This document shows positions 41,382 through 60,785 of a stretch of DNA of 64,000 nt, piece after piece. The stretch's first letter is position 1; the number at the start of each line of letters is the position of its first letter. The notes under the pieces were generated by a model. The model made no database searches. It was not told the DNA's origin and saw nothing but the letters and a program-made list of their open reading frames with translations. Made by a program: the position numbers and the translations under genes. The stretch comes from Bacteroidales bacterium Bact_19 (GTDB taxonomy: Bacteria; Bacteroidota; Bacteroidia; Bacteroidales; ML635J-15), in the NCBI GenBank assembly GCA_001603595.1, contig LUZK01000002.1, positions 2,884 through 66,883 of the forward strand, written 5' to 3'.

Positions 41382-41383
41382 AA

Positions 41384-41644: not shown

Positions 41645-41891
41645 TTTGGTTGTCGTCTTTAATGTTTGTACTTCCGGTTCTTCGGTATAAAATTGCTTCA
41701 GCAAATTTCTGGAGTGCTTTTGGTGCAAATCCTGCGGTTATCAGCAGCGCATCCAACTCAAAGTATATCTTTCCTTCAATCATTTGCCAGGTGATGATGA
41801 CAAATGCAAAAATCAATGTCATCAACGATTGCAAACGCATCAGGGAATCTATTCCTTTACGCTCTTCCAGATATCTTTTGATTAAACTCAT
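41637..41891 (-). CDS. hypothetical small membrane protein (holin-like topology)
   Basis: 84 aa with hydrophobic segments LMTLIFAFVIITW and ALLITAGFA. Confidence 0.45.
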   Translation of the reverse strand: MSLIKRYLEERKGIDSLMRLQSLMTLIFAFVIITWQMIEGKIYFELDALLITAGFAPKALQKFAEAILYRRTGSTNIKDDNQND

Positions 41892-41911
41892 ACCTTGATT
41901 TGGTTTTGGTA

Positions 41912-42280: not shown

Positions 42281-42342
42281 AGCTCTTTGTTTTTAATGAT
42301 TAAAAAATAACAAAGAGGTCCGGTTGCCCGGATCCTCATTCG

Positions 42343-42984: not shown

Positions 42985-43026
42985 TTTAGTAATTATTTTA
43001 ATTAAACATTAGTAAGTAATTTCTTT

Positions 43027-43157
43027 GCATGGCGCATGGCGCATAGGGCATGGGGCTGTTTGTGCTAAAATTTTACATTTTTCTTTTTGCATAATACTAT
43101 TTTTGGCACAAATGTCCTGCTCACTGCTATTTGAGCTCCATGCTCCATGCTCCATGC
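43027..43157. repeat. inverted arrays of the heptamer GCATGGN
   Basis: GCATGGC GCATGGC GCATAGG GCATGGG lies at 43027-43054. Three CTCCATG units (the reverse complement of CATGGAG) lie at 43136-43156, separated by about 80 bp of AT-rich spacer. Confidence 0.75.
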
Positions 43158-43200
43158 TTTTCATTATCACAATTTTATTTTTAAAATCAACTTTCCACTT

Positions 43201-43243
43201 AAGTACTTTAGGCACTTTAGGCACTCCAAGTACTCTAGGCACT
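43201..43243. promoter_or_regulatory. iteron-like direct repeats
   Basis: TAGGCACT occurs at 43209, 43218 and 43236. AAGTACT occurs at 43201 and 43228. All lie in the 262-bp non-coding gap inside the otherwise gapless module. Confidence 0.6.
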
Positions 43244-43246
43244 TTT

Positions 43247-43498
43247 TTACCTGTAAAGCTCACTCGAAGCCTGTCTGATGCAGTTTTTCCACTTCATCTT
43301 TGGATGTGTTTCCCTGATTTTCTTTGCCCTTTCGGTAATCATTTTAAATCTGGATGACACTTCTGCATTTTTCTTTTTGCCTGCAAGTGTTCTATACTTT
43401 TTGGGCTTAGCTGTGATGCTTTTTCTTTTCATTCCGCTTACTGGTGTTTTGGTCTCAACTACGCTTTTTTTTTTACTGCTTTCCAGGCTTCTTTCCAA
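43247..43498 (-). CDS. small, extremely basic hypothetical protein
   Basis: 83 aa and Lys/Arg-rich (KKKS...KRKSITAKPKKYRTLAGKKKN...). It overlaps the end of the 732-aa gene by 40 nt. Confidence 0.45.
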   Translation of the reverse strand: MERSLESSKKKSVVETKTPVSGMKRKSITAKPKKYRTLAGKKKNAEVSSRFKMITERAKKIRETHPKMKWKNCIRQASSELYR

Positions 43499-45657
43499 GC
43501 TTTTGATCCTCCTCCTTTTTCTTTAGCAATTTGTCGCACTTGACTGAACATTTGATTATATTCGTGTGCTGCTGCTATCTGCTTTGGAGATAGTGGTCTG
43601 GCATAAGCTTCGGTGAAAATCTTTTTGTAATATTTCTTTCGGTGAACTTCATCATAAGGCTTTTTATCCTTTTTGATTTCTTCACGAACGAGTGTTGCGT
43701 AAGCTTTGCTGTTCAAGCCCTGGCGTTTGAGGTAGTTTGCCTGCTTTTGAGAGATTGGAGCTTCACCAAGTCCTCTGAGCGATCGCTGGCGAATTTTCCA
43801 GATTACCAATGCTGCAATTCCAATGGTGACAATAACTGCCACAATTATCAGCATAGTTTTGTTTTTGATCAAGAAATACTTGAATCTGCTGATTTCGTTA
43901 CCGTCTTTGTCACGGTAGATTTTTGTCTCTTTACCGTTCTCATCAATAACGGTTTCAACACTTACACCTGACTTTTCGTCGGTCTGAACATTGGATGTTG
44001 CAGCAGCTGCTCCATCTGGTGTTTCTTTTTCTGATCCTGTTGCCATATACTTTGATTTTGTTTGTGTATTACTTGCCGGACTTGGAGCCTCTTTTGTTTC
44101 GTCAACGATGCTGCCGTCCGGTCTTTTCAATTTCAGATTTTTAACTATCGCTATAATGCTGCCGAATACCTGGGTCACGGCAGCAATTATCGCTGGAGCA
44201 ATCCCGAGCTGTCCTTTTAGTCCGGCTTTTCTTGCTCCACGACCATTCATAACCATAGTCTTAAAATAGGCTTTGTCGCCTCCTAATGAATGCCACTTTT
44301 GTTCTGCCTTATCCTTTGCATCAACAAACTGTTTCCATTCTGCTGTGGTGTAACCAAGCTTTTTAGCATCGGCTTCACTGGCATAACCAATGGCGAGTTT
44401 CTCGGCCATAAACAATGCGTTTGCTCTCAGAAAAGCTTCCATTGACTTTCTTAATGTGAAAGTTGCTGGATTGTACTTATTAAGTGCATGACCAACTTTT
44501 GCAATCTTTGGATTGTTTTCTTTAAACTTCTGAACGCCTTGTTTTACTTTGGCTCCGATTTTCTTCAGAAGGCCGCCAGATTTTGGAGCATTAGGATTTT
44601 TCCGTAGCTTGATGGCTGCAAGTCCTTCAAGATCGTCTGGCGAATACTTGTCGCTGATCAGTTCTTGAAGCATATCGTTGTCGGCCAAAACTTTGAGATA
44701 ATACAATTCTTCATCGCCATCGCCTGACAATCCTTTTACAGATTCGTCGAGTCCAAATTGAATGGCTTTGTAGAAATTCTGGTAGAGTGTTCCCTTGCTG
44801 ATGGCGTTGCGGATGGCTTCATCACGGCTTTCGTCATCGGCAAAGCTGCTGATGATTTCGTTAACAAGAGCAAGTTCTTGTTGGTTGTCGTTAAGTTGTG
44901 ACATCTCGGATGGACTGGTCACTTCTTTTTCGAGTGTTTGCTTTGCATCCACCAATTGTTTTAGGATGATATTGCGCTGTAGTTCCGACCCAGTTATCAC
45001 TGAATCGAAATCATCTTCTGGACCAACAATTGCAACATTGCCAAGTATGCCCTGGACAATCTCAAGTTGGTCGTCCTCCACATAAGCACCGGACAGGTTC
45101 TCCGGATCAAAATTCTGTGTGAGCTCGCTGATCATGTCAGCGGAAACTGAGCCTAATTCTTCTAATCTCATGTCAATAATTATTTGATTCTTAATCGGTT
45201 TTGCTTCAAAATTGAAATATGGAATTTCTGGAACGCAGTCAATCACGTATCTTGTTCCATCGCTGCTGTATGCTACTGGGTAAATATGTTGCCACTGACT
45301 TTCTTTTTTATAAGCAGCGATAACAAGCTCGTGTTTGTGGCCAAGATTTGTCAGGATTGCTGAAATGAGTATGCTCATATCATCGCAATCGCCAATCTGA
45401 TCGTAAAGTGTTCGTTGTGGGGTGCGCAATTGTTCTCTTCCTGGCTGATCGTTTTGATAACGGATGTTTTGACGGACAAAGTTCCAGATACCTTCGAAAG
45501 TTGACTTGCAATTATTTGCCTGAAGATTGAACGCCAGTTCCTGAACTGCTGGATAATTCTCTCCAACTATTCTCTTGATGGCATCAATGGTGTCGTAAAC
45601 ATCTGCATATTGCTTGAGTGTTGTACTTTTTCCCGAAACTGTATAGTCTTTCATCAT
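43459..45657 (-). CDS. large membrane protein with N-terminal transglutaminase-like cysteine protease core
   Basis: The Cys context is YDQIGDCDDMSILISAILTNLGH, the His context is ...WQHIYPV... and the Asp context is ...YVIDCV... TM segments are GIAPAIIAAVTQVFGSIIAIV and MLIIVAVIVTIGIAALVIW. The tail is very basic. Confidence 0.7.
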   Translation of the reverse strand: MMKDYTVSGKSTTLKQYADVYDTIDAIKRIVGENYPAVQELAFNLQANNCKSTFEGIWNFVRQNIRYQNDQPGREQLRTPQRTLYDQIGDCDDMSILISAILTNLGHKHELVIAAYKKESQWQHIYPVAYSSDGTRYVIDCVPEIPYFNFEAKPIKNQIIIDMRLEELGSVSADMISELTQNFDPENLSGAYVEDDQLEIVQGILGNVAIVGPEDDFDSVITGSELQRNIILKQLVDAKQTLEKEVTSPSEMSQLNDNQQELALVNEIISSFADDESRDEAIRNAISKGTLYQNFYKAIQFGLDESVKGLSGDGDEELYYLKVLADNDMLQELISDKYSPDDLEGLAAIKLRKNPNAPKSGGLLKKIGAKVKQGVQKFKENNPKIAKVGHALNKYNPATFTLRKSMEAFLRANALFMAEKLAIGYASEADAKKLGYTTAEWKQFVDAKDKAEQKWHSLGGDKAYFKTMVMNGRGARKAGLKGQLGIAPAIIAAVTQVFGSIIAIVKNLKLKRPDGSIVDETKEAPSPASNTQTKSKYMATGSEKETPDGAAAATSNVQTDEKSGVSVETVIDENGKETKIYRDKDGNEISRFKYFLIKNKTMLIIVAVIVTIGIAALVIWKIRQRSLRGLGEAPISQKQANYLKRQGLNSKAYATLVREEIKKDKKPYDEVHRKKYYKKIFTEAYARPLSPKQIAAAHEYNQMFSQVRQIAKEKGGGSKAWKEAWKAVKKKA

Positions 45658-45741: not shown

Positions 45742-46299
45742 TCATAATAGCAGATAGTCTTCGTTAACACTAAGTGTGATTCCCTCAGCCTGGATAAAGC
45801 CAATAAGTTTTACTTTTAGCTGTTTCAGATGCACTTGATTCCAGTATGTTGCTGGTTTTGAAACCACCTGCCATACTGTTGCATCTGGCGGCAACACTTC
45901 CGATTCCTTAAAAAGCGACAATGAATTGAATAGGTCAACATTGTATTCCAATGGAATATTTGTTACCTGTCGATTTTTAAGAACTAAGTTTCCTGGAAGT
46001 ATGTTTGTTTGCTCGGCTACCAGCTTCTGGCTCTTTGGCGAATAGCAGTCCAAACTAAGTTGATTGAGAGTGTAATCTTTACCTGAGAAATTGCGGATCT
46101 CGATGTATCCTTTCATTTTAAAACCACTGGTGAAAATGTCCACCAAATCTTTAAAGCTTTCAAGCTTCTTCGCAGCTTTAAGCGAGGTATCTCCAAGCTT
46201 CAGCTTTTCGGTGTCCTTCACCCTCTTAAAAAACTTCCAGGCTATTCCGAAAGTCAGAATAACCGCTACAATAATCAGGATATGTTTCAGCTTTGGCAT
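45742..46299 (-). CDS. hypothetical N-terminally anchored protein (LEA_2/beta-sandwich-like?)
   Basis: Has the TM segment ILIIVAVILTFGIAW. The remainder is beta-rich. Confidence 0.5.
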   Translation of the reverse strand: MPKLKHILIIVAVILTFGIAWKFFKRVKDTEKLKLGDTSLKAAKKLESFKDLVDIFTSGFKMKGYIEIRNFSGKDYTLNQLSLDCYSPKSQKLVAEQTNILPGNLVLKNRQVTNIPLEYNVDLFNSLSLFKESEVLPPDATVWQVVSKPATYWNQVHLKQLKVKLIGFIQAEGITLSVNEDYLLL

Positions 46300-46425
46300 A
46301 TTCGCATTAAATTCTTAATGCAATAATATGGTGAGTGAAATTAACGCTTTCCGTTAAATGAGGTTATTGGTGAGTAATGGGGAGTTATTTCTGGTAAGGA
46401 GTGGTGAAATAAGAATAGTAGCCGA

Positions 46426-47397
46426 TTATTCATCATATTCAAATAAATTAAAATCTATTTTTTGATATGGTGAATGATTATTTGCATTCAAAACAGTATA
46501 CTTTTTTAATTTATCTAAATTCTCTTGCTTTATTTCTTGTAATAAGTCTGGAGATAATCCCCAATTCTCAATATGTCCAACAAACAACCTTGTTAGTTGT
46601 TTTTCAAACTCTGTTTCGTCAAGTCCTTCCCAACTATTCACATATTCCTTTATCCAGTCATTTACGTATTCATTGCAATACCCAACTATTATATTTGTAT
46701 TGTTGGAATATGGTATTACATGAATAAACACATCATTTAGAGGTTCAACTTGTCTTGGGTTGGTTATTAAATTTTCTATTGGGCTAAAAACTGCAGAACC
46801 GTATATGTCTAAAAACGGATACTTGTACACTTTGAATGTAAATCTTGAAGTTGCATCTTGCAATTCCTCTTCAAAAATCTTCTTGATTCTGTCCAAATCT
46901 TTAACTCCAAGCTCATTTCCATCCTTTGAAATCCTAATTGAATCTAAACCAGCATCACCTCTTAAAGTTTCCGCATTTAAAATCCTTGAGAATTGTTCAA
47001 TGTTAACTAGTTTTTTTCGTATTTCAGCACAAACTACTCTGTAACTTAACAATAACTGGACTTGATATGATTCCAAATCAATGGGGTGCGTTTCAACTTC
47101 CTTAAATATTGAAGAGTCATGGTTATTACAAAATATCGGGAGTGAAAATGCCTTCCGTTTTCCAATACGTTTCATTTCAAATGGTGGCATATTCTTTTTC
47201 CACGAAAAAGGGTCAGTCGGTTTGAGTTCAATTAAATGACCGTCAACAGAAACGTTATCTAAAATGCCATTTTCTTGTAACATGTGTGAATTTATTGCAT
47301 TCTTTTCGCATCCATCAATTAAGCATTTCCATGTTTTAGAATGTACATTCTTAATAATATTTGCAATTACTTGCTGTTTTTTTGAAGGTCTTGACAT
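46426..47397 (-). CDS. hypothetical protein with N-terminal C-x4-C-x6-SH and CNNHD motifs
   Basis: 323-aa ORF containing WKCLIDGCEKNAINSHML and ...FSLPIFCNNHDSSIFKEVE... It is isolated by 126-bp and about 280-bp non-coding flanks. Confidence 0.55.
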   Translation of the reverse strand: MSRPSKKQQVIANIIKNVHSKTWKCLIDGCEKNAINSHMLQENGILDNVSVDGHLIELKPTDPFSWKKNMPPFEMKRIGKRKAFSLPIFCNNHDSSIFKEVETHPIDLESYQVQLLLSYRVVCAEIRKKLVNIEQFSRILNAETLRGDAGLDSIRISKDGNELGVKDLDRIKKIFEEELQDATSRFTFKVYKYPFLDIYGSAVFSPIENLITNPRQVEPLNDVFIHVIPYSNNTNIIVGYCNEYVNDWIKEYVNSWEGLDETEFEKQLTRLFVGHIENWGLSPDLLQEIKQENLDKLKKYTVLNANNHSPYQKIDFNLFEYDE

Positions 47398-47678
47398 AAT
47401 TTTCTTTATTTGAACCTAACTTCTCTATTTACACACAAATTAAATAACATTTGTAAACCAATTTTCATTTATTTAATGTTTTTTTTCAAGCCTTACAAGA
47501 GCATTTTTTAAATCAATTATAACTCCAAATTATAAATATGTATTTATAAAATTGAAATGCATTTGCTAAACAAAATTTTTTCCATAATGCTTAATTATTT
47601 ACGGCCTGTAAATATAGTATTTCCATATCAAAATGTAACGCTATTGTGAAAAAAATAATGAACTTTTATAAACAGCCT

Positions 47679-47823
47679 TTATCTAAGAAACTCCTTAATC
47701 ATCTTTACCTGCTTCGGCATTAAAATCCTTAACCTCTGTTTTCCTGGGCTGAGTTTGAGGAGTTGTTTGCGGATTGGAGTGAGCCAATTGTAGATGGTGT
47801 TGCAAATAGTTGGACTACAAATA
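47679..47823 (-). pseudogene. 5'-truncated copy A of the DUF4248-like gene 3' end
   Basis: The minus-strand translation is ...TIYNWLTPIRKQLLKLSPGKQRLRILMPKQVKMIKEFLR*. There is no start codon. Confidence 0.8.
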
Positions 47824-48193
47824 CAATTTAAAAGGGTACGCGCAAAGCCTACCTACCATTTACCCAATCTCCAAAAATAGAATAAGTTAAAATTAAAAAA
47901 AAATAGGAAATACTCTTAATTATTGTAGTCAATCCCCTTTTTTGTGCTTGTGTGGCTTAAGCGAAGGTGTATTCCCTGGAGTTTCCTTATTGTCTCTTTG
48001 TCGCCTATCAGGCTTACCTGTTGACTTAGCGGTTCGTTTTGGACCTGTTTTTATTCCCATAGCATTAAATGTTTAATTTGTAATCCATAAATAATTTCCA
48101 AAATACAACATGCAACTAACAAAATATCTATATTTTATCTGACTTCAATAATTGTTAAAAAAAACCAATACAGAAGGTTAATTTATTCAGTAT

Positions 48194-48739
48194 TTACCAT
48201 TTATCATCTTCTGCTAACTTAGTAAAATTAAAAATATTACTAAAAGTGAAATTTAAGATAAAACTTGGATTTTTGACAAATGCAGATTTCATAACATTTT
48301 GACCATTTTTTAAAGCAAATGTTTCCAAAGTAGTTCTTTCACCTTCTTTTGATAACCCATCGTCATATTTCTGGGTAAGCATAATATTTTTCAAAGTCAC
48401 CCTATACCTGTTTTCTTTAAATTCAATTATGACAAATCCATCAAAAAAACTTCTCGCTATGTACATTGGACATACCATTTCACTAAAACCTGCACCTTTA
48501 AAATCTGCATCTATTGGCTTTAAATTCCCATAAATTTTATTTTCTTCTATTTGATAATTTTCTAAAAATCCAGACTCTTTTACCAAAGTAATTAATTCAA
48601 TTTCAGTTAAGTCAGTCTCAAATACTTTCTGCCAAAAAACAAAATTATTCTCAGCGACAAAATTGTTGCTCGTATCTTGAGCAGATGTATCGAAAATTAT
48701 AAGAATAAAAGTCAATACTAGTAATATTTTCACTTTCAT
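48194..48739 (-). CDS. secreted hypothetical protein
   Basis: Has the signal peptide MKVKILLVLTFILIIFDTSAQ. Confidence 0.5.
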   Translation of the reverse strand: MKVKILLVLTFILIIFDTSAQDTSNNFVAENNFVFWQKVFETDLTEIELITLVKESGFLENYQIEENKIYGNLKPIDADFKGAGFSEMVCPMYIARSFFDGFVIIEFKENRYRVTLKNIMLTQKYDDGLSKEGERTTLETFALKNGQNVMKSAFVKNPSFILNFTFSNIFNFTKLAEDDKW

Positions 48740-48818
48740 AATGACCCAATTTTTTAATTAGTATAAAGTTCTAATTCGAAATAAATGTAACAAACTTTTA
48801 CAAGTGTTATTATTGAAT

Positions 48819-49682
48819 TTAATTTTGCTTTATTTCCTTTGTCTTAGTTTTAAAAACTGTTCCAGTGGCAACTCCACCAAATGAGAAAATCATTCTATCT
48901 GTCAATCCTGCAATTTCAATTTGATTATCAATAGGAAAATACTTCCTTGCTTCAAAAAAGAAACTAAAATCGTTTAGTGGAATGGAAATTTTAAAGCCCC
49001 CGCCCAAAATATTTCGACTTAATTTTGAATTTGATCGGTTCAATTCTTCAAACGAAGTCCCTGTTGCAATATTTTCATAAACATACATATAATTTAATTG
49101 TGGGCTTATTGTAAAACCCACAAGTCCAAAATCGGTATTCGTGATATATCCAAACTGATATCCAAAATTAATATTGAAATTTCTAAAACCTGTGTTTAAT
49201 GGATTTATACTATTCGCCAGTGCATAAGGTGCCATAGACGCATCAACAAAAAACAAATTTAGAAGCCTTGAATTATAATCAATACCTGCTTGCCTAATGT
49301 TTGATAATCTGAATCCTATCAGCATTTGAAATTCATTGTCCACAAAAGCTAGTTTCCTCATGTCAATTGAATCACCTGAAATATAATTTGCTTTTAGAAA
49401 AGGATTATATTTGAAAATTGTTGTCAAAGTTGTTAATTTATCTTTCCCAGATGATTTTGCTTTACCATTTGATAAGCCAATATTCCAATCCAAAGCAACT
49501 TGTCCAGATGTCGAACTTTTTTCAGATGTAAACTCATACAAATTCCCACCACCAACACCTGAAATTGCAAATGTATTTACTCTTGGGTTATAAAGAATTC
49601 CAATAGGTGAGGGTTGTTGAGAATACACGCTTACTGCTACTATAATACAAGTAAATAATAAAACTAACTTCTTTTTGCTCAT
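48819..49682 (-). CDS. secreted hypothetical protein, possibly an outer-membrane beta-barrel
   Basis: The start is taken at MSKKKLVLLFTCIIVAVSVYSQ. Alternating beta-strand patterns are present throughout. Confidence 0.5.
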   Translation of the reverse strand: MSKKKLVLLFTCIIVAVSVYSQQPSPIGILYNPRVNTFAISGVGGGNLYEFTSEKSSTSGQVALDWNIGLSNGKAKSSGKDKLTTLTTIFKYNPFLKANYISGDSIDMRKLAFVDNEFQMLIGFRLSNIRQAGIDYNSRLLNLFFVDASMAPYALANSINPLNTGFRNFNINFGYQFGYITNTDFGLVGFTISPQLNYMYVYENIATGTSFEELNRSNSKLSRNILGGGFKISIPLNDFSFFFEARKYFPIDNQIEIAGLTDRMIFSFGGVATGTVFKTKTKEIKQN

Positions 49683-49807
49683 ATTAAAATGTAATAAATG
49701 GTTAACAATTAAATAAATTCTGTTCAAAATTACCAACTTATAAACTATTTACAAAATATAAATTGATAAATTTTTATAATAAATGCAACTTCTGAAAATG
49801 CTATTTT

Positions 49808-49962
49808 TCACCCCAAAAACTCCCAAATCATCTTCACCTGCTTCGGCATCAAAATCCTTAACCTCTATTTTCTCGGGCTCATTTCGAGGAGTTGTTTGCG
49901 GATTGGAGTAAGCCAATTGTAGATGGTGCGAGGCTCTGTGATTCTCGGACTATAAATCCGAG
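49808..49962 (-). pseudogene. 5'-truncated, stop-containing copy B of the DUF4248-like gene 3' end
   Basis: The minus-strand translation is ...TEPRTIYNWLTPIRKQLLEMSPRK*RLRILMPKQVKMIWEFLG*. Confidence 0.8.
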
Positions 49963-49989
49963 GGAGCTGGGCAAAGTATTCCACAATGA

Positions 49990-51186
49990 TTATTCACTCT
50001 TATAGTGTCTCGAAATATACTCTGCAATTTTTGTAACAACTTCATTGGCGATATTATATTTCGTTGTTTCCATGCCATTTGAATATTCTTGAAGTTTTGA
50101 ATATAATTCATATTTATCCCAAATGTCCTCAATTGTACCGTCAATCCATATGTGATATTTGAACTTTACATTTTCCATACTTCTGTTAAAATCGACCTGT
50201 CCAATAAACAACGAACCTTCTCGATGTCCTTTACCACTAAAGGATTCTATTCCAAAGAAAATGCGATCATCCTTACTCACTCTCAGCCATATTGTGCTAA
50301 ATCTTTCGTTATTGTTCTTTAATGAAATTAGCTCACTTTCAGAAATTATATTTTTCTTGAGGAGTAAATCTTTTATTTGAACTTTAAGTTCATCTGAAAC
50401 TTTATCAATCGCATTGTTAAATTCTTGAGCGATTTTTTCTGAATTAATAATATTGGAAAGTATTATCTGATGTATTTCATTTTTCATTTCAATTGTGCTT
50501 ACTTGATTTGTTAGAGATCTAACTAAAATTATATATTGCTTAATTGATTCTCGTATAATTGGGATATCAGTGGATTCTTTATAACACATTTCAAGCCAAT
50601 CCAAAATATCTTTTTTGTAGGATAAGGAATAGTAATCTTTGCCTGAATGCAACTTACTTTCTACACTATTCTCTCCATTTAAAGTTAAGTAAATAAGAAT
50701 TTTGTTTTGCTTCGGGATTCTATTTATATAACTTCTATAGCGTTCTAATTGAAGACTCTGATCACTAGCATATATTTTGTTTTCAATACAAATTTGAAAA
50801 ATGTCATTTGAAATTAAAATATCAATTCGTCCTCCATTGTTACTTTTAACTTTTCCGATGTCCTTTTCACATTCAACAATGACATTTTTCAATTTATTCG
50901 AATCGGGAACATCGGCATTTTCCCAATCGCAATCAGATGCTTTCTTTCTGTTAAGCATTTCAATAAATAAAAACAAAAACTTTTCATCGAGTAAGTGAGA
51001 ACCTTTTGGATTCAGTAATTCGCTTATAAAGGCAGAATGAGTTTTAACTTCATCAGTTCTTCGATCAAGAATGTTAAATAAATTAAATTTCTCTCCTTTA
51101 ATTTTTTCAATTTCTCTAAATTTCTTTATAGACCTCCCGATTAAATCCAGAGTAACATCAATTGACTTTTTTTCGATGTCTGTCAT
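49990..51186 (-). CDS. PD-(D/E)XK nuclease family protein (PDDEXK_4-like)
   Basis: The N-terminal region is FNLFNILDRRTDEVKTHSAFISELLNPKGSH. The catalytic core is GGRIDILISNDIFQICIENKIYASDQSLQLERY. Confidence 0.75.
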   Translation of the reverse strand: MTDIEKKSIDVTLDLIGRSIKKFREIEKIKGEKFNLFNILDRRTDEVKTHSAFISELLNPKGSHLLDEKFLFLFIEMLNRKKASDCDWENADVPDSNKLKNVIVECEKDIGKVKSNNGGRIDILISNDIFQICIENKIYASDQSLQLERYRSYINRIPKQNKILIYLTLNGENSVESKLHSGKDYYSLSYKKDILDWLEMCYKESTDIPIIRESIKQYIILVRSLTNQVSTIEMKNEIHQIILSNIINSEKIAQEFNNAIDKVSDELKVQIKDLLLKKNIISESELISLKNNNERFSTIWLRVSKDDRIFFGIESFSGKGHREGSLFIGQVDFNRSMENVKFKYHIWIDGTIEDIWDKYELYSKLQEYSNGMETTKYNIANEVVTKIAEYISRHYKSE

Positions 51187-51189
51187 ATG

Positions 51190-51495
51190 CTATCGAATTT
51201 CTTTGCCAGAAGACTTTAGCTTTAGATATTTCTTCCCATTTTGATGATGAAAGAGTAATCCATTATCATAAAACTGCGTTGAAACAACAGTATTGCTAAT
51301 TCCACTTTTCATTTGAACTGTCCCGCTTCCTGTAGTCATATATACATCGCCATTGCTATAGGTAATGGCATAAGATTCTTTGCCATCAAATAACCCCTGT
51401 GAAACGTGAATAGCTCCGCTTTTTCCAACTGTTCTTGTTCCTGAACCTTCTTTCTCAAGACAACGACCATCTTTAATTAAGTATAATTTTGCCAT
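51190..51495 (-). CDS. small hypothetical beta-rich protein, translationally adjacent to the nuclease
   Basis: The start is taken at MAKLYLIKDGR. The ORF-track N-terminal extension runs into repeat C. The stop lies 3 nt before the nuclease start. Confidence 0.45.
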   Translation of the reverse strand: MAKLYLIKDGRCLEKEGSGTRTVGKSGAIHVSQGLFDGKESYAITYSNGDVYMTTGSGTVQMKSGISNTVVSTQFYDNGLLFHHQNGKKYLKLKSSGKEIR

Positions 51496-51535
51496 AATTT
51501 TTATTTTGTTTGTTACATTCTTAATAATTATTATC

Positions 51536-51637
51536 TTATCCCAAAACACTCCTAATCATTTTCACCTGCTTCGGCATCAAAATCCTTAACCGTTGTTTTC
51601 CTGGGCTGAGTTCGAGAAGTTGTTGGCGGATTGGAGT
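51536..51637 (-). pseudogene. 5'-truncated copy C of the DUF4248-like gene 3' end
   Basis: The minus-strand translation is ...TPIRQQLLELSPGKQRLRILMPKQVKMIRSVLG*. Homology stops at TPIR. Confidence 0.8.
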
Positions 51638-51763
51638 AGTTAAAGTGAGCTTCGTTTTAAAGCATCAGGTTCTCTTGTAATCAAATTTTTCTAACACAAG
51701 TGCCGAACAAATTTTCAATTACAGAGAAAACCCAATGCTTTTGATTCCTACTTGCAAAAGTAA

Positions 51764-51955
51764 TTACTTGCCATTAATTTCATCAAGAATAATCTGAATT
51801 TCGTCTTGACATTGACCGCAAACTGTTCCTGCTTCAGTTATTTGCCCAACCTCCTCAACAGTTTTTAAGCCATTTTCTTTAATCGCTTTAACAATTGTAC
51901 TTTTATATACTTCCATACAAGTACAAATCATTTTATCATCATCCATAATTTTCAA
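51764..51955 (-). CDS. BFD-like [2Fe-2S]-binding domain protein
   Basis: Contains C-x-C...C-x2-C (MICTCMEV...GTVCGQCQ). Length is 63 aa. Confidence 0.7.
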   Translation of the reverse strand: MKIMDDDKMICTCMEVYKSTIVKAIKENGLKTVEEVGQITEAGTVCGQCQDEIQIILDEINGK

Positions 51956-51956
51956 T

Positions 51957-53588
51957 TTAAATTAGTTCAAAAATTTTCAAATCTTCTTCAACAGTTTTGA
52001 TTGTTTGAACGCCAAAACTTTCTTGCACTGCTTTTAATAGGTTTGGAGTTAAAAATCCTGGTAGTGTTGGGCCAACATGTGTGTTTTTAATTCCAAGATA
52101 TAATAAAGCAAGATGGACTATGATTGCTTTCTGTTCATACCAAGCAATGTTAAAAACAATCGGCAACTTGTTTATATCATCTAAGTTCAAAACCTCTTTT
52201 AATTTTAATGCAACAAATGCCCATGAATAGCTGTCATTACACTGTCCTGCATCCAACACCCTAGGTATTCCATTGATTGTTCCTAAATTCAGTTTGTTGT
52301 AACGATATTTTGCACATCCTGAGGTAAGAATTACAGTGTCTTTTGGCAATGCATTTGCGAATGCGGTGTAATATTCACGACTCTTAAATCTTGCATCGCA
52401 GCCCGACATAACAACTAAACGTTTGATTGCGCCAGAATTAACTGCTTCAAGAACTTTATCAGCAAGTGCAAGTACTTGATCATGTGCAAAACCAATTGTT
52501 ATTTCTCCTGTTTCAAGAGCAGTTGGTGGTGGGCATGTTTTTGCTAATTCAATGATTTCAGAAAAATCTTTATGTCCATTAGGGAGTTTTTTGTCGAGTA
52601 TTTTCCATTCTGGCATCGCAGTAGCACCAGTTGTAAAAATACGGTCATTATAGGTCGTCATTCTTCTTGGTGGAACTAGACAATTAGTTGTGAATAACAC
52701 AGGACCATTAAAAGTTTCAAATTCCTCTAACTGGCGATGCCAAGCATTTCCATAATTGCCAACTAAATGGCTGTATTTTTTAAGATTTGGATATGCATGT
52801 GCAGGTAACATTTCGGAATGTGTATAAATGTCAATTCCTTTTCCTTCAGTTTGAATTAGTAATTGCTCCAGATCTTTCAAATCGTGTCCGCTAATCAATA
52901 TTCCAGGATTCTTCTTAACACCAATTTGGACTTGTGTAATTTCTGGCGTTCCAAAAACCGTAGTATTCGCTTTGTCTAACAATGCCATTACTTTAACGCC
53001 ATGTTCGCCAGTTCTTACAACCCAATTAAATGCATCGCTCAAAGTTATAGGCTTGGTTATCATTACCAAGCTTTCTTCCATAAAGCTATAAATCTCCTGA
53101 TCTTCAAATCCTAGATTAAATGCATGTTCGGTATAAGCAGCCATACCTTTAACCCCAAATAATACATACTGTTTTAAGCCGCGAATATCATCGTCGGCAT
53201 CGTAAGTCATCGTTCCAACAAATTTCGATTTTGCAATCAATTCATCATCAGTTTTGCCAATCCAAGTGATTGATTGATGACTTTCAGACACATTAATCTT
53301 TAATTTTAGATTGTCACGAAAAGCAAAACATTCTTTAACAGCTTTAATTATTGACTTATCGTCAAAATTTGCATTTGTAATAGTCATAAACAAACAATTT
53401 GTTATGTGCTTACTTTCTGCGTTTGTGTCAATACCATTATTTCTGGCTTCGATTGTTAAATATGATAATCCTTGACATGCAAAGATTAGCAAATCCTGAA
53501 TATCTGAAGTTTGTTCATTTTTTCCACAAACTCCTTTAATTGTGCAGCCTGTATTTTTGGCCGTTTCCTGACATTGGTTACAAAACAT
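51957..53588 (-). CDS. hcp: hydroxylamine reductase / hybrid-cluster protein
   Basis: The N-terminal cluster motif is [23 protein letters not shown]. Length is 543 aa, with conserved ...TNCL.PP... and ...GQCNDSYS... contexts. Confidence 0.92.
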
Positions 53589-53740
53589 AATTGTATAATT
53601 TAAGTTATAATAATTTTGCTGGTTCTGCTTTAATTTGGGTTGATATTTTCCATGTCTTCAAAAATACAAAAATAAAAGCAATTAGCCAAATAAATTCTGC
53701 AAAATTATTATACAATTTTACTTTCATATTTTGTCAGAAT

Positions 53741-53923
53741 CTACCCCAAAAACTCCCTAATCATCTTCACCTGCTTCGGCATCAAAATCCTTAATCTTTG
53801 TTTTCCGGGGCTAAGTTCGAGGAGTTGTTTGCGGATTGGAGTAAGCCAATTGTAGATTGTGCGGGGTGTGGTATCGTAGTAATCCGCGAGTTCTTGGATA
53901 GTATATGTTGGCTTTGTTTCCAT
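53741..53923 (-). CDS. small HTH protein, DUF4248-like (intact copy D)
   Basis: 60 aa. YTIQELADYYDTTPRTIYNWL...MPKQVKMIREFLG fits my recollection of the Bacteroidota DUF4248 pattern (Y.. .ELA..Y...... ; P.QV..I...LG). Confidence 0.6.
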   Translation of the reverse strand: METKPTYTIQELADYYDTTPRTIYNWLTPIRKQLLELSPGKQRLRILMPKQVKMIREFLG

Positions 53924-54043: not shown

Positions 54044-54541
54044 ATGAATGATTTATATCTTGATCTCGAATGGTTTTTTAACCAAGAAATTTTTTTGGTT
54101 GGCTATGCATACTCACTCACAAATTATGGTCAATTATATGATCAGACTCTTACAATAGAAAATATTAAGCGATTGCTTGAGCCAATTGATGGCTATATTT
54201 TCTTTTATGGTCCAGATATCGGCATGCTTGAAAAATCCACAGGCCTCGATATTCGCAATAACTATTCTTGCATTAACCTTCTAAAAGTCTTCCGTGATAT
54301 TATGCCAGGATTAGACTCCTACAGACTTGCTTACTTAGAAGAAATGTTCGAAATCAAACGCTCACAACGCCAATACAAATCCAACATCTTCAAACTCGCC
54401 GAAGACTGGAACAATCCATACAAAAAACCACAAGTCCTTAAATATAATATGGAGGATGTAATAAATCTTGTTCGTCTAAAACGTGAAGTTTTTGGGCTGT
54501 ATCTTGTTGGAGATGATTATTTGGATTGGGTGAGGATGTGA
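54044..54541 (+). CDS. RNase H-like (YprB/DEDD-type) exonuclease domain protein
   Basis: Contains LDLEW (DxE), ...FFYGPDIGML... and ...YNMEDVINLV..., matching the RNase_H_2/YprB-type acidic motif spacing. Confidence 0.55.
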   Translation: MNDLYLDLEWFFNQEIFLVGYAYSLTNYGQLYDQTLTIENIKRLLEPIDGYIFFYGPDIGMLEKSTGLDIRNNYSCINLLKVFRDIMPGLDSYRLAYLEEMFEIKRSQRQYKSNIFKLAEDWNNPYKKPQVLKYNMEDVINLVRLKREVFGLYLVGDDYLDWVRM

Positions 54542-54682: not shown

Positions 54683-55252
54683 CTATAAACCTTTACGAGT
54701 ATTCTTGTCTTCTTTATATATTTCAACTTGTTTTAAGAAATTATCCTTTAAAGTTCTTGCAAGTTTAAACTCAACAATTGTTATATCTTCTGACCCGTAT
54801 GAAAAATTAAAATCACTACTACCGCCGCCATTATTAACTTGTTGATTAATATCAAATTCTGAGTTATCACAAAGCATTGCAAACATCGGGTATAATACCT
54901 CTTCTTTTACTTTTTGCATTGATTGAAAAACCTTATATCCTTTTCTATCCTCAATGTACTTTTTGAATGTCAATAATCTTTCCTTAGCTTCATCATATGA
55001 ATTCCTAAAAGTTTTTTTTAGTTTACTTTTTTGTGCACTAACAAACTCTCTATAATCATTTTCAAAATCAACAGATAAATAATTATTAATATTGATCGTT
55101 TCTGCATCTATTTTAAGCTTATTATTATCCTCGCTTTCTCCAATGGGTCTTAATCTTCCGCTTTTATAATCAAAGTATCTAATTATAAGATATGTACCTA
55201 CAATTGCTGCAATTGCAACAACAATTACTTTCGAAAGTTCTTTATTTGACAT
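54683..55252 (-). CDS. hypothetical N-terminally anchored protein (possible D...E-x-K motif at the C-terminus)
   Basis: Has the TM segment VIVVAIAAIVGTYLII. The C-terminus is ...SSDFNFSYGSEDITIVEFKLA... Confidence 0.45.
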   Translation of the reverse strand: MSNKELSKVIVVAIAAIVGTYLIIRYFDYKSGRLRPIGESEDNNKLKIDAETININNYLSVDFENDYREFVSAQKSKLKKTFRNSYDEAKERLLTFKKYIEDRKGYKVFQSMQKVKEEVLYPMFAMLCDNSEFDINQQVNNGGGSSDFNFSYGSEDITIVEFKLARTLKDNFLKQVEIYKEDKNTRKGL

Positions 55253-55304
55253 TTTAAATAAATCTTTATATTTTTTAATTTACATATTTTTTAATGTGCA
55301 CTCA

Positions 55305-56030
55305 TCAACCATACAAATACTTCTCAATAAGCTCCGATTTAAACTCAGAAAGTTTAACCCCATCAAAACCAGAAACCTCTTTGTTTAAGACCTCAACAAT
55401 GTACTTTTCTTTAGTGTTATTATCCCAATTATCATAATCCTTTGGTATTACCATTTTTATAGGTTTTCTTGATTTATCAATGTCTTCTTGATTAAAGCTT
55501 TTAACTTCATACATAGGATTTGCTTCAAAAAAGACTTCTATTAGTTCTTGTCGTTTTAATATCTTCAAGTATGGTAAAAGCTTATCCTCCTTAATATTTA
55601 AGTTCTTTGACAAATTTTCTTTATAAAAAGAGACTTCCCATTCATTTGGATTATATCTCTCTGATTGAGTAAGATTGATAATTCCTTCATACAAAGCTTT
55701 AATCAACTGCTTTCTATTTACTGCTGTTTTAATAAATACTTTTCCATTCTCATCTGGTTCTGAGATAATAAAAAGATCCCACTCATAATTTATTCTTACA
55801 ATATCAAACTTGATTTCATTACCTTCTGGATTAAATGTAAATGATGTTTGCTGGACATTTGTTGTTAATGCTTTTAACCAGTATTTCAAGTCAAGTATCG
55901 GATCATATACATACGAAAAACTTGATTCAAAAATAACCTTTTCGGCTTTAATCTTAAAATGAATCCAACCTGCGATCACTTCATAAAAATCAACTTTTAT
56001 TTCAGTTATTAATTTGTTTGTTTTTCCCAT
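55305..56030 (-). CDS. hypothetical protein immediately downstream of res
   Basis: 241-aa ORF starting 6 nt after the res stop. No motif recognised. Confidence 0.45.
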   Translation of the reverse strand: MGKTNKLITEIKVDFYEVIAGWIHFKIKAEKVIFESSFSYVYDPILDLKYWLKALTTNVQQTSFTFNPEGNEIKFDIVRINYEWDLFIISEPDENGKVFIKTAVNRKQLIKALYEGIINLTQSERYNPNEWEVSFYKENLSKNLNIKEDKLLPYLKILKRQELIEVFFEANPMYEVKSFNQEDIDKSRKPIKMVIPKDYDNWDNNTKEKYIVEVLNKEVSGFDGVKLSEFKSELIEKYLYG

Positions 56031-56036
56031 TTTTTA

Positions 56037-58694
56037 TCAGTTAATCAATTGCCCCACTTTATTAACAACCTTATATTCAATGTCATCAAATTCATTAAAA
56101 TGAGCTTTGCCACATTTTATCTTCAGTTGCTCATCGCCGCTAAGTTTTAACAGATCGACTTCTTTAGTTCCAGTGTCCTTTGTTTCAGTCACAAAATAAA
56201 CTTTTTTATCGCCCTCAAAAACTATTGCCCAGTCAGGATTATACTTTCCAATTGGGGTAGGGATTTTAAACCAGTTTGGAAGTTTAAAATAAAATTTAAC
56301 TTGCTCACTTGTTTCACAATCTTGTGCAAATTTGCTTTCTACACCAGAATCCAAAGGCATGAATTCTTCATAAATAGTTTTTGAGTTATCTGAAACCTTA
56401 AATGTAAAATCATTTAAGTAAACAAAAAAATCCTTATCATCAAACAATTCTAGTGCGTAAAATTCAGAATCTCCAATTTTATGATACTTAATTCCATCAA
56501 TCATAAGATCGTACAAAGTGCGATTGATTGCCTGCGAAGCCAAATCAAGAAATAATTGTGGATTTATCAAAATATCTCCAATACGGCCAGATTCACTTAA
56601 AATTTCTTGAATTGTTGATCTTGTTAATTCTGTTTTGCTCTGTATATAACCCAAAACATCGGGAATTTTCCAAGAATAACCGCCATATGATTCTATCTTG
56701 TCGCCAACGTAAGAAGTGCCAACGCCTTCATCGGTCATTGTAACCGAGACTTTTGTAGAGCGTATTGAAGGTGCTTTTATTTCGGATATTTCCTTTAAGG
56801 ATTTTGCAGCAAGTATAATCAAGTCTTTTGTAGAGTAATCAACCCGATAAGTTGTTTTGGTTCTAATTTTTTCCCAAATTTCAAGAAAACGTGAGTCGGC
56901 TTCAAACCCTTTGCGGTATTTGATTTGTGTTAGGTCTTTTGAATTTTTAATACGACCAGTAAATTTAACCCCGCAATCTTCTTCAATTTCTTTTTGCAGT
57001 GCTTTTGCAAAGTCGTCATACGATTCGTTTGCAATAACAGTCAGGCGGTTTATGGTTTGGTCATAAATTCGTTTACCTTCCTTATCAACTGCAAGTCTTA
57101 AACCTCGTCCAATTTCCTGACGTTTTTTTATTTCTGATTTTGTTTCGTTTAGCGTACAAATTTGAAATACATTTGGATTATCCCAACCCTCACGCAATGC
57201 TGAATGCGAAAAGATAAAACGTAATGGATTCTCTACATCCAAAAGTTTTTCTTTGTCTTTCATTATAAGGCTGTATGTGTCATCATCAGCCTGGGTTTCG
57301 CCCGAAGTGTCTTTCATTTTTCCTTTTTTGTCTTGCGAAAAATAGCCGTTGTGTATCTCAGCAATTGGGAAATTATCAAGTGTTTTAAATGCTGGTTTGG
57401 CAATTAGTTCTTTATAAATTTCCTCAAACCACATGGCAAATTTTCCATGATTTGAGTTTCCCGAAGCATCGTATTGCCTATAATTTGCAACTTTATCAAT
57501 AAAGAAAAGCGATAATACTTTAATCCCTTTGGGTTTTAAACGAAGTTCTTTTTTTAGGTGTTCTTCAACCGTTTTGCGAATTTGAAACTTCATTATTTCA
57601 TCTGTCAAACCGCCTTGTGAATCGCCTTTGTATAAGATATTACCATTCGATAATGAAATGCATTGGTTTGAAGCATCTATTTCTTCAATGATATAACCAT
57701 TTGAGTAAATTTCTCGCTCATTTGAAAGTTTATATAGGTCGTCGCCAACTTTTACAGTAAATGTTTTTTTCTTTACGGCATCCTTTTCATTAACAAAGAT
57801 TGAAACTTTTGCAGTTACCTTTGTTTTCGCAGCAAATAAAGAATCGAGCGAAACAAATGCATCATTATTAGAGTTTTCCTCAATTATGGAATCAACCTCA
57901 ATTTGTTTTACCAAACCCATGTCGTAGGCTTTTACAGGATTGAGGCTGTATGTAAGGTTATATTGGTTTTTGTGAGTTGCAGAATAACGAAGCGTACAAA
58001 GTGGTATGAGATTATCAATAGCTGTAATACGTTTTTCGGTTTCCATGTTTTGCGGTTCGTCCACAATTACAATTGGATTGGTAGTTTGAATAAACTCAAC
58101 TGGTCTTTGACCGTTTAATTTATCGTTTGGTTTATTAATAATGTTTTCGTCTTTGGCAAATGAATCAATATTGATTACTAAAACCTCAATATTGTTGCCT
58201 GTTGCAAAACCTCGCAACGATGAAACTTTTGTACTGTCGTAAACCTGAAAATGAACTGGAACATTATCGTAAAGATTTTGAAAATGTTCATGTGTGATTT
58301 CGAGGTTTTTTAAAACACCTTCACGGATTGCCACCGATGGAACAACAATTACAAATTTCTTAAAACCATATTGTTTAAAAAGCTCATAAATAGTGCGCAA
58401 ATACACATAAGTTTTACCTGTACCTGTTTCCATTTCTACCGAAAAATGAAAACCGTCTAACTTCTCGGTCTTGCAAATATCATTTACGGTTTGAATTTCC
58501 TGTAAATTTTCAAGTACCTGTTCTTCGGACAATACAAGTTTATTTCCAATTCCATTGATTAAATCTAATTTGCCTTTTTCTTCAAGTTTAAATTCCACAA
58601 TGGAATCTTCCATTGGCTGCCCCTCAAACAAGGCTGTAATAGACTTTATTGCATCTTGCTGATATTGCAAATTGGGTTCAAAAGATAGCTTCAT
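56037..58694 (-). CDS. res: Type III restriction enzyme Res subunit (SF2 helicase + PD-(D/E)XK)
   Basis: Walker A is EMETGTGKTY and motif II is IVIVDEPQNM. The helicase C-terminal motif is ...ALREGWDNPNVF... The C-terminal nuclease is NPDWAIVFEGDKKVYFVTETKDT. Confidence 0.88.
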   Translation of the reverse strand: MKLSFEPNLQYQQDAIKSITALFEGQPMEDSIVEFKLEEKGKLDLINGIGNKLVLSEEQVLENLQEIQTVNDICKTEKLDGFHFSVEMETGTGKTYVYLRTIYELFKQYGFKKFVIVVPSVAIREGVLKNLEITHEHFQNLYDNVPVHFQVYDSTKVSSLRGFATGNNIEVLVINIDSFAKDENIINKPNDKLNGQRPVEFIQTTNPIVIVDEPQNMETEKRITAIDNLIPLCTLRYSATHKNQYNLTYSLNPVKAYDMGLVKQIEVDSIIEENSNNDAFVSLDSLFAAKTKVTAKVSIFVNEKDAVKKKTFTVKVGDDLYKLSNEREIYSNGYIIEEIDASNQCISLSNGNILYKGDSQGGLTDEIMKFQIRKTVEEHLKKELRLKPKGIKVLSLFFIDKVANYRQYDASGNSNHGKFAMWFEEIYKELIAKPAFKTLDNFPIAEIHNGYFSQDKKGKMKDTSGETQADDDTYSLIMKDKEKLLDVENPLRFIFSHSALREGWDNPNVFQICTLNETKSEIKKRQEIGRGLRLAVDKEGKRIYDQTINRLTVIANESYDDFAKALQKEIEEDCGVKFTGRIKNSKDLTQIKYRKGFEADSRFLEIWEKIRTKTTYRVDYSTKDLIILAAKSLKEISEIKAPSIRSTKVSVTMTDEGVGTSYVGDKIESYGGYSWKIPDVLGYIQSKTELTRSTIQEILSESGRIGDILINPQLFLDLASQAINRTLYDLMIDGIKYHKIGDSEFYALELFDDKDFFVYLNDFTFKVSDNSKTIYEEFMPLDSGVESKFAQDCETSEQVKFYFKLPNWFKIPTPIGKYNPDWAIVFEGDKKVYFVTETKDTGTKEVDLLKLSGDEQLKIKCGKAHFNEFDDIEYKVVNKVGQLIN

Positions 58695-58697
58695 GGT

Positions 58698-60767: not shown

Positions 60768-60785
60768 TTCAATTTATTTATCATT

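Follow-up and report, generated by a model that had tools for sequence, protein, structure and literature searches.

What kind of process leaves a single intact gene standing in front of several severed copies of its own 3′ end, each of which heads a different set of genes? The question is raised by a 64,000-nucleotide (nt) stretch of DNA, here called the window, from Bacteroidales bacterium Bact_19 (GenBank assembly GCA_001603595.1, contig LUZK01000002.1, positions 2,884 to 66,883). It contains an intact 60-amino acid (aa) gene for a small helix-turn-helix (HTH) protein, copy D, and three 5′-truncated copies of that gene, C, B and A, which are referred to below as remnants or scars. A first reading of the sequence alone had described this array and had offered two explanations for it: serial integration of mobile elements by an integrase, or a recombination hotspot that swaps the cargo genes downstream. 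Comparison with related loci establishes that the slot behind the HTH gene is highly polymorphic, that the scars differ from one another like alleles of different genomes, and that recombination breakpoints lie in and around them. On balance, the array has probably grown by successive insertions next to the intact gene.

The intact gene and its truncated copies

A repeat search of the 64-kb window found a single family of direct repeats, with four minus-strand copies. Four matches to a 36-nt core, TTAAGGATTTTGATGCCGAAGCAGGTGAAGATGATT, were found with no more than two mismatches, again only on the minus strand, where none was expected in 100 shuffles. Copy limits were set by alignment to a profile built from 17 full-length HTH alleles (Table 1). 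Repeat search and profile alignment together confirm one intact gene with three co-oriented, 5′-truncated copies, and the open reading frames (ORFs), annotated with Pfam and PADLOC, bear out the further claim that each copy precedes an unrelated gene set. The copies do begin exactly at the stop codon, as had been proposed: their stops are in register (TAG, TAA, TGA and TAA), mutual homology ends there, and the 5′ breakpoints of the remnants are sharp and differ from one another (at about codons 20, 21 and 27). The coordinates first assigned were essentially right, except that the 5′ ends given for B (49962) and A (47823) overshoot detectable gene homology by 24-28 nt. Directly upstream of B lies a conserved piece of about 37 nt for which profile alignment detected no derivation from the HTH gene. 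The upstream flanks of C and A were considered as further 5′ HTH sequence or as the post-stop leader described below, and nhmmer profiles gave no support for either.

The four copies differ mutually at 7-11 of 78 nt, which is the level seen between alleles of different genomes, and D is nearer to the HTH gene of a related locus, L005 (95.5% identity), than to its own scars (about 92%). Compared with D, remnant C has six synonymous and three non-synonymous codon differences and remnant A nine and three, so that the initial counts (six and three, eight and three) are reproduced almost exactly. Nei-Gojobori ratios of non-synonymous to synonymous substitution (dN/dS) against D are 0.15 (C), 0.18 (B) and 0.07 (A), as against 0.04 among functional alleles; for scars against functional alleles the range is 0.05-0.18, with differences mainly at third codon positions. 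Substitutions private to the scars have another character, with 8 synonymous versus 22 non-synonymous or nonsense changes (73%), near the neutral expectation; in remnant C, four of the five private changes are non-synonymous. Because divergence from functional alleles is biased towards synonymous change and private changes are nearly neutral, the scars are taken as former functional alleles that decayed after truncation. The suggestion that the copies were under protein-level constraint before they became junctions thus holds, with neutral decay since. Each scar also retains its native downstream sequence: about 260 nt downstream of A are 83% identical to the sequence following a very short remnant in L009, and about 37 nt after the stop of B match the post-stop sequence of L005.

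As judged from profile scores, the 60-aa protein is a peripheral relative of DUF4248 and HTH_17 rather than a DUF4248 member by the threshold of Pfam. Copy D matches HTH_17 (PF12728, an excisionase/MerR-like HTH) over residues 7-27 at 22.2 bits, below the gathering threshold of 27, and DUF4248 (PF14053) over residues 29-60 at 17.7 bits (E = 0.0038; gathering threshold 27 bits). Sub-threshold DUF4248 matches are the commonest in the family (7 of 18 members, best E = 2.4e-5), and HTH_17 matches of this kind occur in 5 of 18 relatives; the label 'DUF4248-like' is therefore loosely true, although the Pfam cutoff is not reached. The family is small, with 4 representatives of 90%-identity clusters in a word-indexed search and 54 in an exhaustive profile search. 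D is 80-95% identical to P0001-P0004 and to the genes of about 25 related loci. Look-ups of exact proteins found neither D nor the PD-(D/E)XK protein of the second cassette on record, and a search of IMG/VR returned generic HTH matches only and not this family. In one related locus (L010, 244-1536), a BT4734-like_N / PriCT_2 / VapE primase-helicase-like gene lies about 9 kb upstream of the HTH gene; it is reminiscent of the Bacteroides surroundings of DUF4248 genes, which we take to include VirE/primase, HU-like and amidase genes.

A conserved frame around a variable slot

Related loci, about 25 in number, were collected from Bacteroidales and Marinilabiliales by genome and metagenome scans and contig look-ups, and are designated by L numbers. 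All have the same frame which, written with the HTH gene on the plus strand, consists of an RNase_H_2 gene on the minus strand, the HTH gene, a variable segment, a block of about 100 nt, the p185 gene and a transglutaminase gene with the remainder of a conserved module. Identity between the window and L001 is 92-96% as far as the HTH stop and again from 46404; between these points the two have nothing in common, with 7.4 kb in the window (hcp and other cargo) and 5.2 kb in L001 (CD-NTase/TIR-STING/AAA_13). Across loci, the variable part is smallest in L029, where about 220 nt amount in effect to an empty site, and reaches about 9.3 kb in L027. Its cargo is mostly concerned with defence: CD-NTase with TIR-STING (a cyclic-oligonucleotide-based antiphage signalling system, CBASS), AAA_13, SMC_N/AAA_21, methylase with HATPase, NACHT, HD and PDC-S26 genes; an ORC/CDC6-like protein is also found. 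Conserved flanks, cargo that is unrelated from genome to genome, an empty allele and enrichment for defence genes together characterise a defence-island hotspot. In the relatives, a conserved leader of about 85 nt follows the HTH stop and ends in GTTTGTAAGTTTG, corresponding to the Bacteroidetes -7 element TAnnTTTG, with TTTG about 20 nt upstream. The leader is found behind intact stops and the stops of very short remnants ('mini-remnants') alike, including all three mini-remnants of L027. It is probably the promoter of the cargo, and no significant copy was detected in the window array.

The locus is therefore polymorphic as had been anticipated, from the empty site of L029 to the three- and four-cassette arrays of L027 and the window. 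In the window and about 400 kb of related loci, copies of the repeat are confined to the slot, always point the same way and keep the reading register of the gene; neither a repeat dispersed independently of the gene nor an array invariant among relatives, the two outcomes that the sequence-only reading had named as fatal to its proposal, was observed. An intact anchor followed by co-oriented 5′-truncated copies, each derived from a once-functional allele and each with its own downstream genes, is the layout of a displacement array, and the same layout is seen in L027, L013 and L048. L027 has an intact gene, a remnant from nt 65-67 or thereabouts to nt 183 (counted along the HTH gene) and three mini-remnants, which delimit three cargo sets; two remnants are present in L013 (from nt 44 and from nt 86-90) and one in L048 (from nt 60). 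Remnants of 20-30 nt occur in L008, L009, L011/L044 and L012. All remnants extend through the stop codon and their 5′ ends all differ (nt 44, 57, 60, 62, 65, 80, 86 and about 150-162), which fits illegitimate joins. A fragment of the reciprocal type was observed in L030 (10001-10066), where the HTH gene is represented by its first 66 nt alone, and these run into unrelated sequence.

Several exchanges have left recognisable boundaries. The claim that the copies are junctions delimiting independently acquired gene sets is supported. L048 belongs to a near-identical strain that has the last cassette in common with the window and different cassettes upstream of it. Over nt 63-156, its remnant and A disagree at 13 of 94 positions, and from nt 157 the two are 100% identical; the identity spans about 1.5 kb, through the p323 gene, the 100-nt block and about 110 nt of p185, and the flank beyond is 2-5% diverged. 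Given this jump in identity at nt 157 and the return of divergence within p185, the p323 cassette was exchanged recently, by one crossover at the extreme 3′ terminus of the gene copy and a second within the conserved flank. The exact 323-aa protein is present on three other contigs. L049 carries the junction that the window has upstream of A, and L048 carries other genes there (320 and 335 aa) together with a longer remnant. The L048 remnant was also considered as a simple recombinant of B and A, which is only partly true: its 5′ part is B-like, its middle D-like and its sequence from nt 157 on that of A, with six private changes.

Further boundaries are found elsewhere in the slot. The CBASS genes of L001 and L005 are about 93% identical, their RNase_H_2 genes about 75%, and the left boundary of the similar region lies in the post-stop leader; the most divergent patch between these loci is nt 166-225 of the gene numbering. 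L024 (5020-5105) and L025 (6270-6355) lie within more than 2 kb of 100% identity broken only by 14 mismatches at nt ~122-205, a patch made up of the final ~60 nt of the HTH gene plus some 20 nt beyond the stop, and thus a micro-replacement of the gene end. Copy D is itself a mosaic: RNase_H_2, the intergenic region and nt 1-155 are L021/L001-like and nt 156-183 are L005-like, with nt 130-155 identical to L021 and 7 of the last 28 nt differing from L021 and matching L005. The earlier suggestion that an incoming element brings a replacement 3′ end is compatible with this result, the last 28 nt of D being of another haplotype than the left flank. Lastly, nt 130-165 form the most variable block of the gene between genomes and contain 0-3 differing sites among the four copies of the window (Fisher p = 4e-5); the copies of L027 and of L013 showed no such homogenisation. 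The pattern points to local gene conversion or crossing-over among the window copies. A universal recombination core at nt 130-165 was rejected, since the block is homogenised in the window copies only, not in L027 or L013, and is the most variable one between genomes. Other boundaries of exchange lie in the post-stop leader or within p185, so that they occur wherever there is homology.

Displacement and exchange weighed against other mechanisms

With moderate confidence, we favour a recombination hotspot that is filled by serial additive insertion ('displacement') and then reworked by homologous exchange and gene conversion. As for the enzymology, we infer homology-facilitated illegitimate recombination (HFIR), in which RecA-type homologous recombination at one end is combined with illegitimate joining at the other; a homologous anchor with an illegitimate join is consistent with both the variable, sharp 5′ junctions and the mosaic structure of D. 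Incoming DNA, whether donated by another cell that has a related element or derived from a second copy within the genome, would pair through the conserved left flank, RNase_H_2 and the HTH gene. Its far end would be joined either inside the resident HTH gene, which would create a scar, or in the homology of the post-stop leader and p185, which would not. A join inside the resident gene would place the incoming intact gene and its cargo upstream, and would shift the resident 3′ part, promoter region and cargo downstream. Repetition of this event would give the order D-hcp/BFD, C-PD-(D/E)XK, B-two ORFs and A-p323, with the newest set adjoining D. Selection probably favours events that keep the promoter of each older gene set, which would explain why every scar retains the gene end. 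The scars would then serve as short homology arms through which cassettes are exchanged, lost and gained, and through which copies convert one another. Of the two explanations first offered, the hotspot that swaps downstream cargo fits best; integration of successive mobile elements by an integrase receives no direct support, as no recombinase was found in the window ORFs tested or within 10 kb of about 20 related loci, the 5′ breakpoints differ and the cassette ends have no structured site in common.

Such arrays have a precedent. Sequential displacement arrays have been described at effector-immunity loci of Vibrio cholerae's type VI secretion system (T6SS), where HFIR has been proposed and a link drawn to displacement of Rhs C-termini (Kirchberger et al., 2017, PMC5361080); orphan arrays formed by 'C-terminal displacement' at Rhs/CdiA loci are attributed there to Jackson et al. 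(2009, as cited in Kirchberger et al., 2017). As in the HTH array, a conserved upstream anchor is followed by new modules, and older ones have moved downstream together with a displaced 3′ end, so that the order of acquisition is recorded; HFIR and homologous exchange of whole arrays are the proposed processes, and no integrase is involved. The T6SS/Rhs arrays differ in that the displaced part is a variable, toxin-encoding 3′ end with its immunity gene. In the HTH array, by contrast, the displaced part belongs to a small regulator-like gene and is its conserved 3′ end, the cargo consists of unrelated operons (defence genes, hcp and unknowns) that start after the stop, the host belongs to the Bacteroidales, and relatives have a palindromic unit at the junction.

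Several observations weigh against displacement by HFIR. Junctions cluster at nt ~150-162 of the gene (the haplotype switch in D, the A/L048 breakpoint, and the starts of mini-remnants including the third of L027), which would not be expected from homologous recombination on its own; sequence invariance in the gene extends furthest over nt 81-107. Cassettes consist of whole genes only and end 3-395 nt after a stop, which is tidier than random illegitimate joins would be. B and the L048 remnant have the same 5′ end and the same hairpin piece of about 37 nt, yet different genes upstream. A 64-nt palindromic unit follows the stop in many relatives, and cargo starts in its loop in two independent lineages. 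Displacement also presupposes that DNA can enter these uncultured organisms, by natural competence or otherwise, and the analysis covered part of the source genome.

These points lend some plausibility to site-specific cassette capture, which we consider possible and distinctly less probable. Here, small cassettes, each with an attachment sequence resembling the HTH gene 3′ end, would be inserted into that 3′ end or into a scar; the recombinase, of a tyrosine, serine, Xer-like or hairpin-specific kind, would be encoded elsewhere, with crossover at nt ~150-160 and the 64-nt palindromic unit as the empty or minimal site. The clustering of junctions and the whole-gene cassettes would then be expected. 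So would the way in which the gene end moves, with the part from nt 157 following the downstream cargo (A, L048) and the part before it staying with upstream sequence (B and the ~37-nt piece of L048). In every window scar, nt 130-165 are free of private mutations, which both flanks have. The palindromic unit has the form GCCGACCTATAAGCAACATTGTTTCAT-loop-ATGAAACAATAATTTGCTTAAGAGTCGG, about 17 nt after the HTH stop, and was found only directly after HTH stops, in seven loci, with eight exact matches to its left arm and a variant copy after the intact gene of L027. It begins with the ATGCCGA of the gene itself, preceded by gene-like TTTTAT, and is followed by a copy of the last ~30 nt of the gene and a stop. 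In L008 it is tandem, and the unrelated cargo of L013 and that of L024/L025 both start at one and the same point of the loop.

Against this, no recombinase was found in the window ORFs tested (those of 36-64 kb and others), in line with the initial impression that no integrase is visible there, nor within 10 kb of about 20 related loci. Scar lengths vary widely; nt 130-165, read from the sequence, have no dyad symmetry, and are not conserved between the copies of L027 or of L013. No structured site common to cassette ends was detected, five of the seven cassette-end flanks being unstructured and unrelated (structure z scores of upstream flanks: C, 0.44; A, 0.07; B, -1.25, a small hairpin; L048, -3.2), and the palindromic unit is missing from the window. 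L024 and L025 have the same cargo and different gene 3′ ends, and the CBASS exchange has its boundary in the leader rather than at nt 157. A more specific form of this proposal, in which the gene 3′ end is the attachment site of an undescribed, integron-like cassette-capture system of Bacteroidales for defence genes, with a recombinase or hairpin-cleaving enzyme encoded elsewhere, crossovers at nt ~150-160, the palindrome as empty or minimal site and nt 130-165 kept as an active site, seems to us less likely again.

Known site-specific systems resemble the array only in part. SCC/SCCmec (staphylococcal cassette chromosome) elements at the 3′ end of rlmH (orfX), and tandem islands at the 3′ ends of tRNA and tmRNA genes, leave the gene intact and are separated by direct repeats of the gene end. 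Some of these elements lack a recombinase of their own and are served in trans; their repeats are short, of fixed length and contain the recombinase core, and ccr or an integrase is present in the array or the genome. The HTH array shares with them the gene-end direct repeats between tandem sets behind an intact gene. It differs in that its repeats are 104-127 nt long, variable in length and extent (with starts, across loci, at nt 44-86 rather than at a fixed point) and allelically diverged, with no recombinase found nearby. Xer-dependent pdif modules would be a further analogue of such capture. In integrons, too, small co-oriented cassettes are added at a fixed site, with the newest there and older ones pushed back. 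By the HTH array no intI tyrosine recombinase was found among the window ORFs tested, the cassette ends in the window have no attC-like imperfect palindromes, and the cassettes appear to have promoters of their own. The comparison with integrons has also been made for the T6SS arrays (Kirchberger et al., 2017).

Compared with displacement by HFIR, a purely intragenomic origin is improbable. It would invoke unequal or illegitimate crossing-over between element copies or sister chromosomes, or tandem duplication and deletion, with trimming of 5′ parts and no horizontal transfer of cassettes. Two metagenome-assembled genomes (MAGs) each contributed two loci with different cargo (L005/L006 and L007/L012), which would supply the required second copies, except that MAGs can mix strains, so that two copies per genome are uncertain. 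The presence of an hcp-BFD pair beside the same module in L046 suggests local reshuffling, and the signals of gene conversion between copies agree with it. The four window alleles, however, are diverged like alleles of different genomes, and the cassettes point to transfer between lineages: p323 is 100% identical in L048 against 2-5% divergence of the flank, and the CBASS genes are about 93% identical against about 75% for the flank.

We give still less credence to the copies being functional repeats, with the last ~50 nt acting as a promoter-proximal, operator or RNA element that is duplicated along with each gene set. Every copy does lie directly upstream of a gene set, nt 130-165 are without private mutations in the window copies, and Bacteroidetes-type promoter motifs occur past the stops of D and B (53659-53690 for cassette 1 and 49725-49755 for cassette 3), as does the leader ending TAnnTTTG in relatives. 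These motifs lie beyond the stop, outside the repeat, and are not enriched (seven in the window, seven expected); scans for sigma-70 promoters and for terminators were likewise not above shuffle expectation. Most related loci, moreover, have different cargo without any scar (L001, L005, L006, L010), nt 130-165 are not conserved between the copies of L027 or of L013, and the scars contain nonsense and scrambling mutations. Finally, a dispersed repeat of the REP (repetitive extragenic palindromic) or MITE (miniature inverted-repeat transposable element) kind that overlaps the gene end by chance is hardly credible: relatives do have a small palindromic unit at the same position, but in the window and about 400 kb of related loci all copies lie in one slot, one orientation and the gene register, their divergence is codon-structured, and the window has no palindrome.

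Cargo, flanks and meaning of the hotspot

The coordinates of the array and its surroundings are collected in Table 1. Within the array of the window, only cassette 2 contains a recognised defence candidate, the 398-aa nuclease, which matches PDDEXK_4 in Pfam (7e-34) and the candidate defence family PDC-S26 in PADLOC (1e-94). The three ORFs of cassette 3, and p323 in cassette 4, have no family match. The hcp-BFD pair of cassette 1 recurs in a distant relative, L046 (1268-4411, with DUF1801), which has no HTH gene and carries the pair on the opposite side of RNase_H_2; the two hcp products are 84% identical (aa), and the nucleotide homology (78%) is limited to the coding block (window 51762-53601). 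The pair may be an old neighbour of the locus rather than a roaming cassette. In cassette 3, the very basic 43-aa ORF (MGIKTGPKRTAKSTGKPDRRQRDNKETPGNTPSLKPHKHKKGD) lies inside a sharply bounded block of about 145 nt that is 98% identical to L027 12858-12995, with two of three differences synonymous and unrelated cargo around it in both loci; it looks like a tiny, recently shared gene.

Table 1. Positions of the array, its cargo and its flanks in the window, and of recurrent elements in related loci (positions preceded by an L number refer to that locus)
Feature	Position	Strand	Basis or remark
Copy D, intact 60-aa HTH gene	53741-53923	-	ORF; proximal conserved anchor of the hotspot
Remnant C, gene nt 80-183 including stop	51536-51639	-	Profile alignment
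Remnant B, gene nt 57-183 including stop, nonsense Q42* in frame	49808-49934	-	Profile alignment
Remnant A, gene nt 62-183 including stop	47679-47800	-	Profile alignment
Piece of ~37 nt upstream of B, hairpin CTCGGA..TCCGAG	49935-49971	-	Conserved; common to the L048 remnant
Cassette 1: hcp (Prismane) 51957-53588 and BFD-like [2Fe-2S] gene 51764-51955	51764-53588	-	Pfam
Cassette 2: 101-aa ORF 51190-51495 and 398-aa PD-(D/E)XK nuclease 49990-51186	49990-51495	-	Pfam, PADLOC
Cassette 3: 305-aa ORF 48819-49736, 181-aa ORF 48194-48739, 43-aa basic ORF 47929-48060	47929-49736	-	ORFs
Cassette 4: ~280-nt leader and 323-aa Cys/His-rich ORF (p323) 46426-47397	46405-47678	-	
Distal boundary of the hotspot: ~100-nt non-coding block 46300-46404 (TTACCAGAAATCAC...), then p185 gene	45742-46404	-	
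Conserved ~10-kb module: transglutaminase-like 732-aa protein, p213, small ORFs, p352, peptidoglycan-binding (PG-binding), amidase, RadC, p155	36457-45657	-	
RNase_H_2-superfamily gene, divergent from D	54044-54541	+	Pfam; neighbour of the HTH gene at every locus
Second variable region (RNase_H_2 side), with ORFs of 189 and 241 aa, type III restriction-modification (R-M) and REase-ARP	54683-62141	-	Pfam
Palindromic unit	L008 10184-10400 (tandem); L009 1091-1203; L011 10184-10295; L027 6561-6671, 9113-9221; L021 2625-2689		
Palindromic unit, left arm only	L013 4461-4510; L024/L025		
Post-stop leader	L001 6565-6647; L005 2901-2983; L008 10406-10487; L010 10185-10261; L027 6674-6756, 9225-9305, 13988-14067		

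RNase_H_2 and D form the conserved left flank and recombination anchor of the hotspot. At the other end, homology to L001 resumes at 46404, with the non-coding block, which is conserved in all loci examined. The block is C-rich, lies upstream of p185 (TTACCAGAAATCACTCCCCATTACTCC...) and ends in a hairpin, GCATTAA-GAAT-TTAATGC. The fixed right-hand neighbour is the ~10-kb module, with a GC content of 0.37-0.43 compared with about 0.26-0.38 in the rest of the window. It is widespread in MAGs of Bacteroidota, in which p352 has 77 homologues, all annotated as 'hypothetical'. An AlphaFold 2 (AF2) model of p352 (pLDDT 69) predicts a small alpha/beta domain and a 100-residue helix, and had no match in the PDB at E <= 0.001. 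The module had been called phage-like; PHROGs and Pfam gave just the amidase, PG-binding and RadC genes, on which that label rests, and with no phage structural genes demonstrable a phage origin would be no more than putative. Past the module are ordinary genes for type IX secretion system (T9SS) cargo, and the left 36 kb of the window are housekeeping chromosome.

A second variable region lies on the RNase_H_2 side, with res (56037-58694), mod (58698-60767) and REase-ARP (60786-61724) genes; an AbiTii gene (62212-63177) also belongs to this defence island upstream of D. Relatives have other defence systems there (type I and III R-M, GmrSD, MmeI-like). An AT-rich non-coding block of about 350 nt (61784-62141), 84% identical to L001 3380-3705 and 78% to L002 4107-4464, appears to be the outer boundary of this region; no Rfam family was found for it, nor in or near the array. 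Downstream of AbiTii, two adjacent small paralogous ORFs (58 and 67 aa) contain a 65-nt direct repeat (63296-63524, 74% identity). The locus is thus a two-sided hotspot for defence and accessory genes around a conserved RNase_H_2/HTH pair.

Known comparators are the hotspots of P2/P4-like elements and the defence hotspots of Escherichia coli and Pseudomonas that are flanked by core genes. With these, the locus shares fixed flanks, highly variable defence cargo (here CBASS, R-M, NACHT, Abi-like ATPases and PDC-S26), the existence of empty as well as filled alleles, and recombination in the flanks; it differs in the 3′-end scars between cargo sets, which are not known as a feature of those hotspots, and in the nature of its flanks, the RNase_H_2/HTH pair and an uncharacterised module of about 10 kb. 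Literature searches found no earlier account of this hotspot, of a junction site in DUF4248 genes, or of defence cassettes set apart by gene-end scars. As a record of how a slot is filled, the scars are useful and not unprecedented; the locus seems to work like the T6SS/Rhs displacement arrays and the core-gene-flanked defence hotspots.

The hotspot is a previously uncharted feature of uncultured Bacteroidales and Marinilabiliales, and candidate defence genes can be collected by way of its fixed flanks; cargo ORFs that have no family match, here the 323-aa Cys/His protein, the 305- and 181-aa pair and the 43-aa basic protein, are among those to be found in this way. Should a dedicated enzyme lie behind the palindromic unit and the junctions at nt ~150-160, the array would represent a new kind of cassette system. 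The gene-end scars provide a rare, ordered record of successive acquisitions, and also document their own reuse as homology arms in the exchange of cassettes. The locus therefore bears on how chromosomal defence islands may turn over without visible mobile-element genes.

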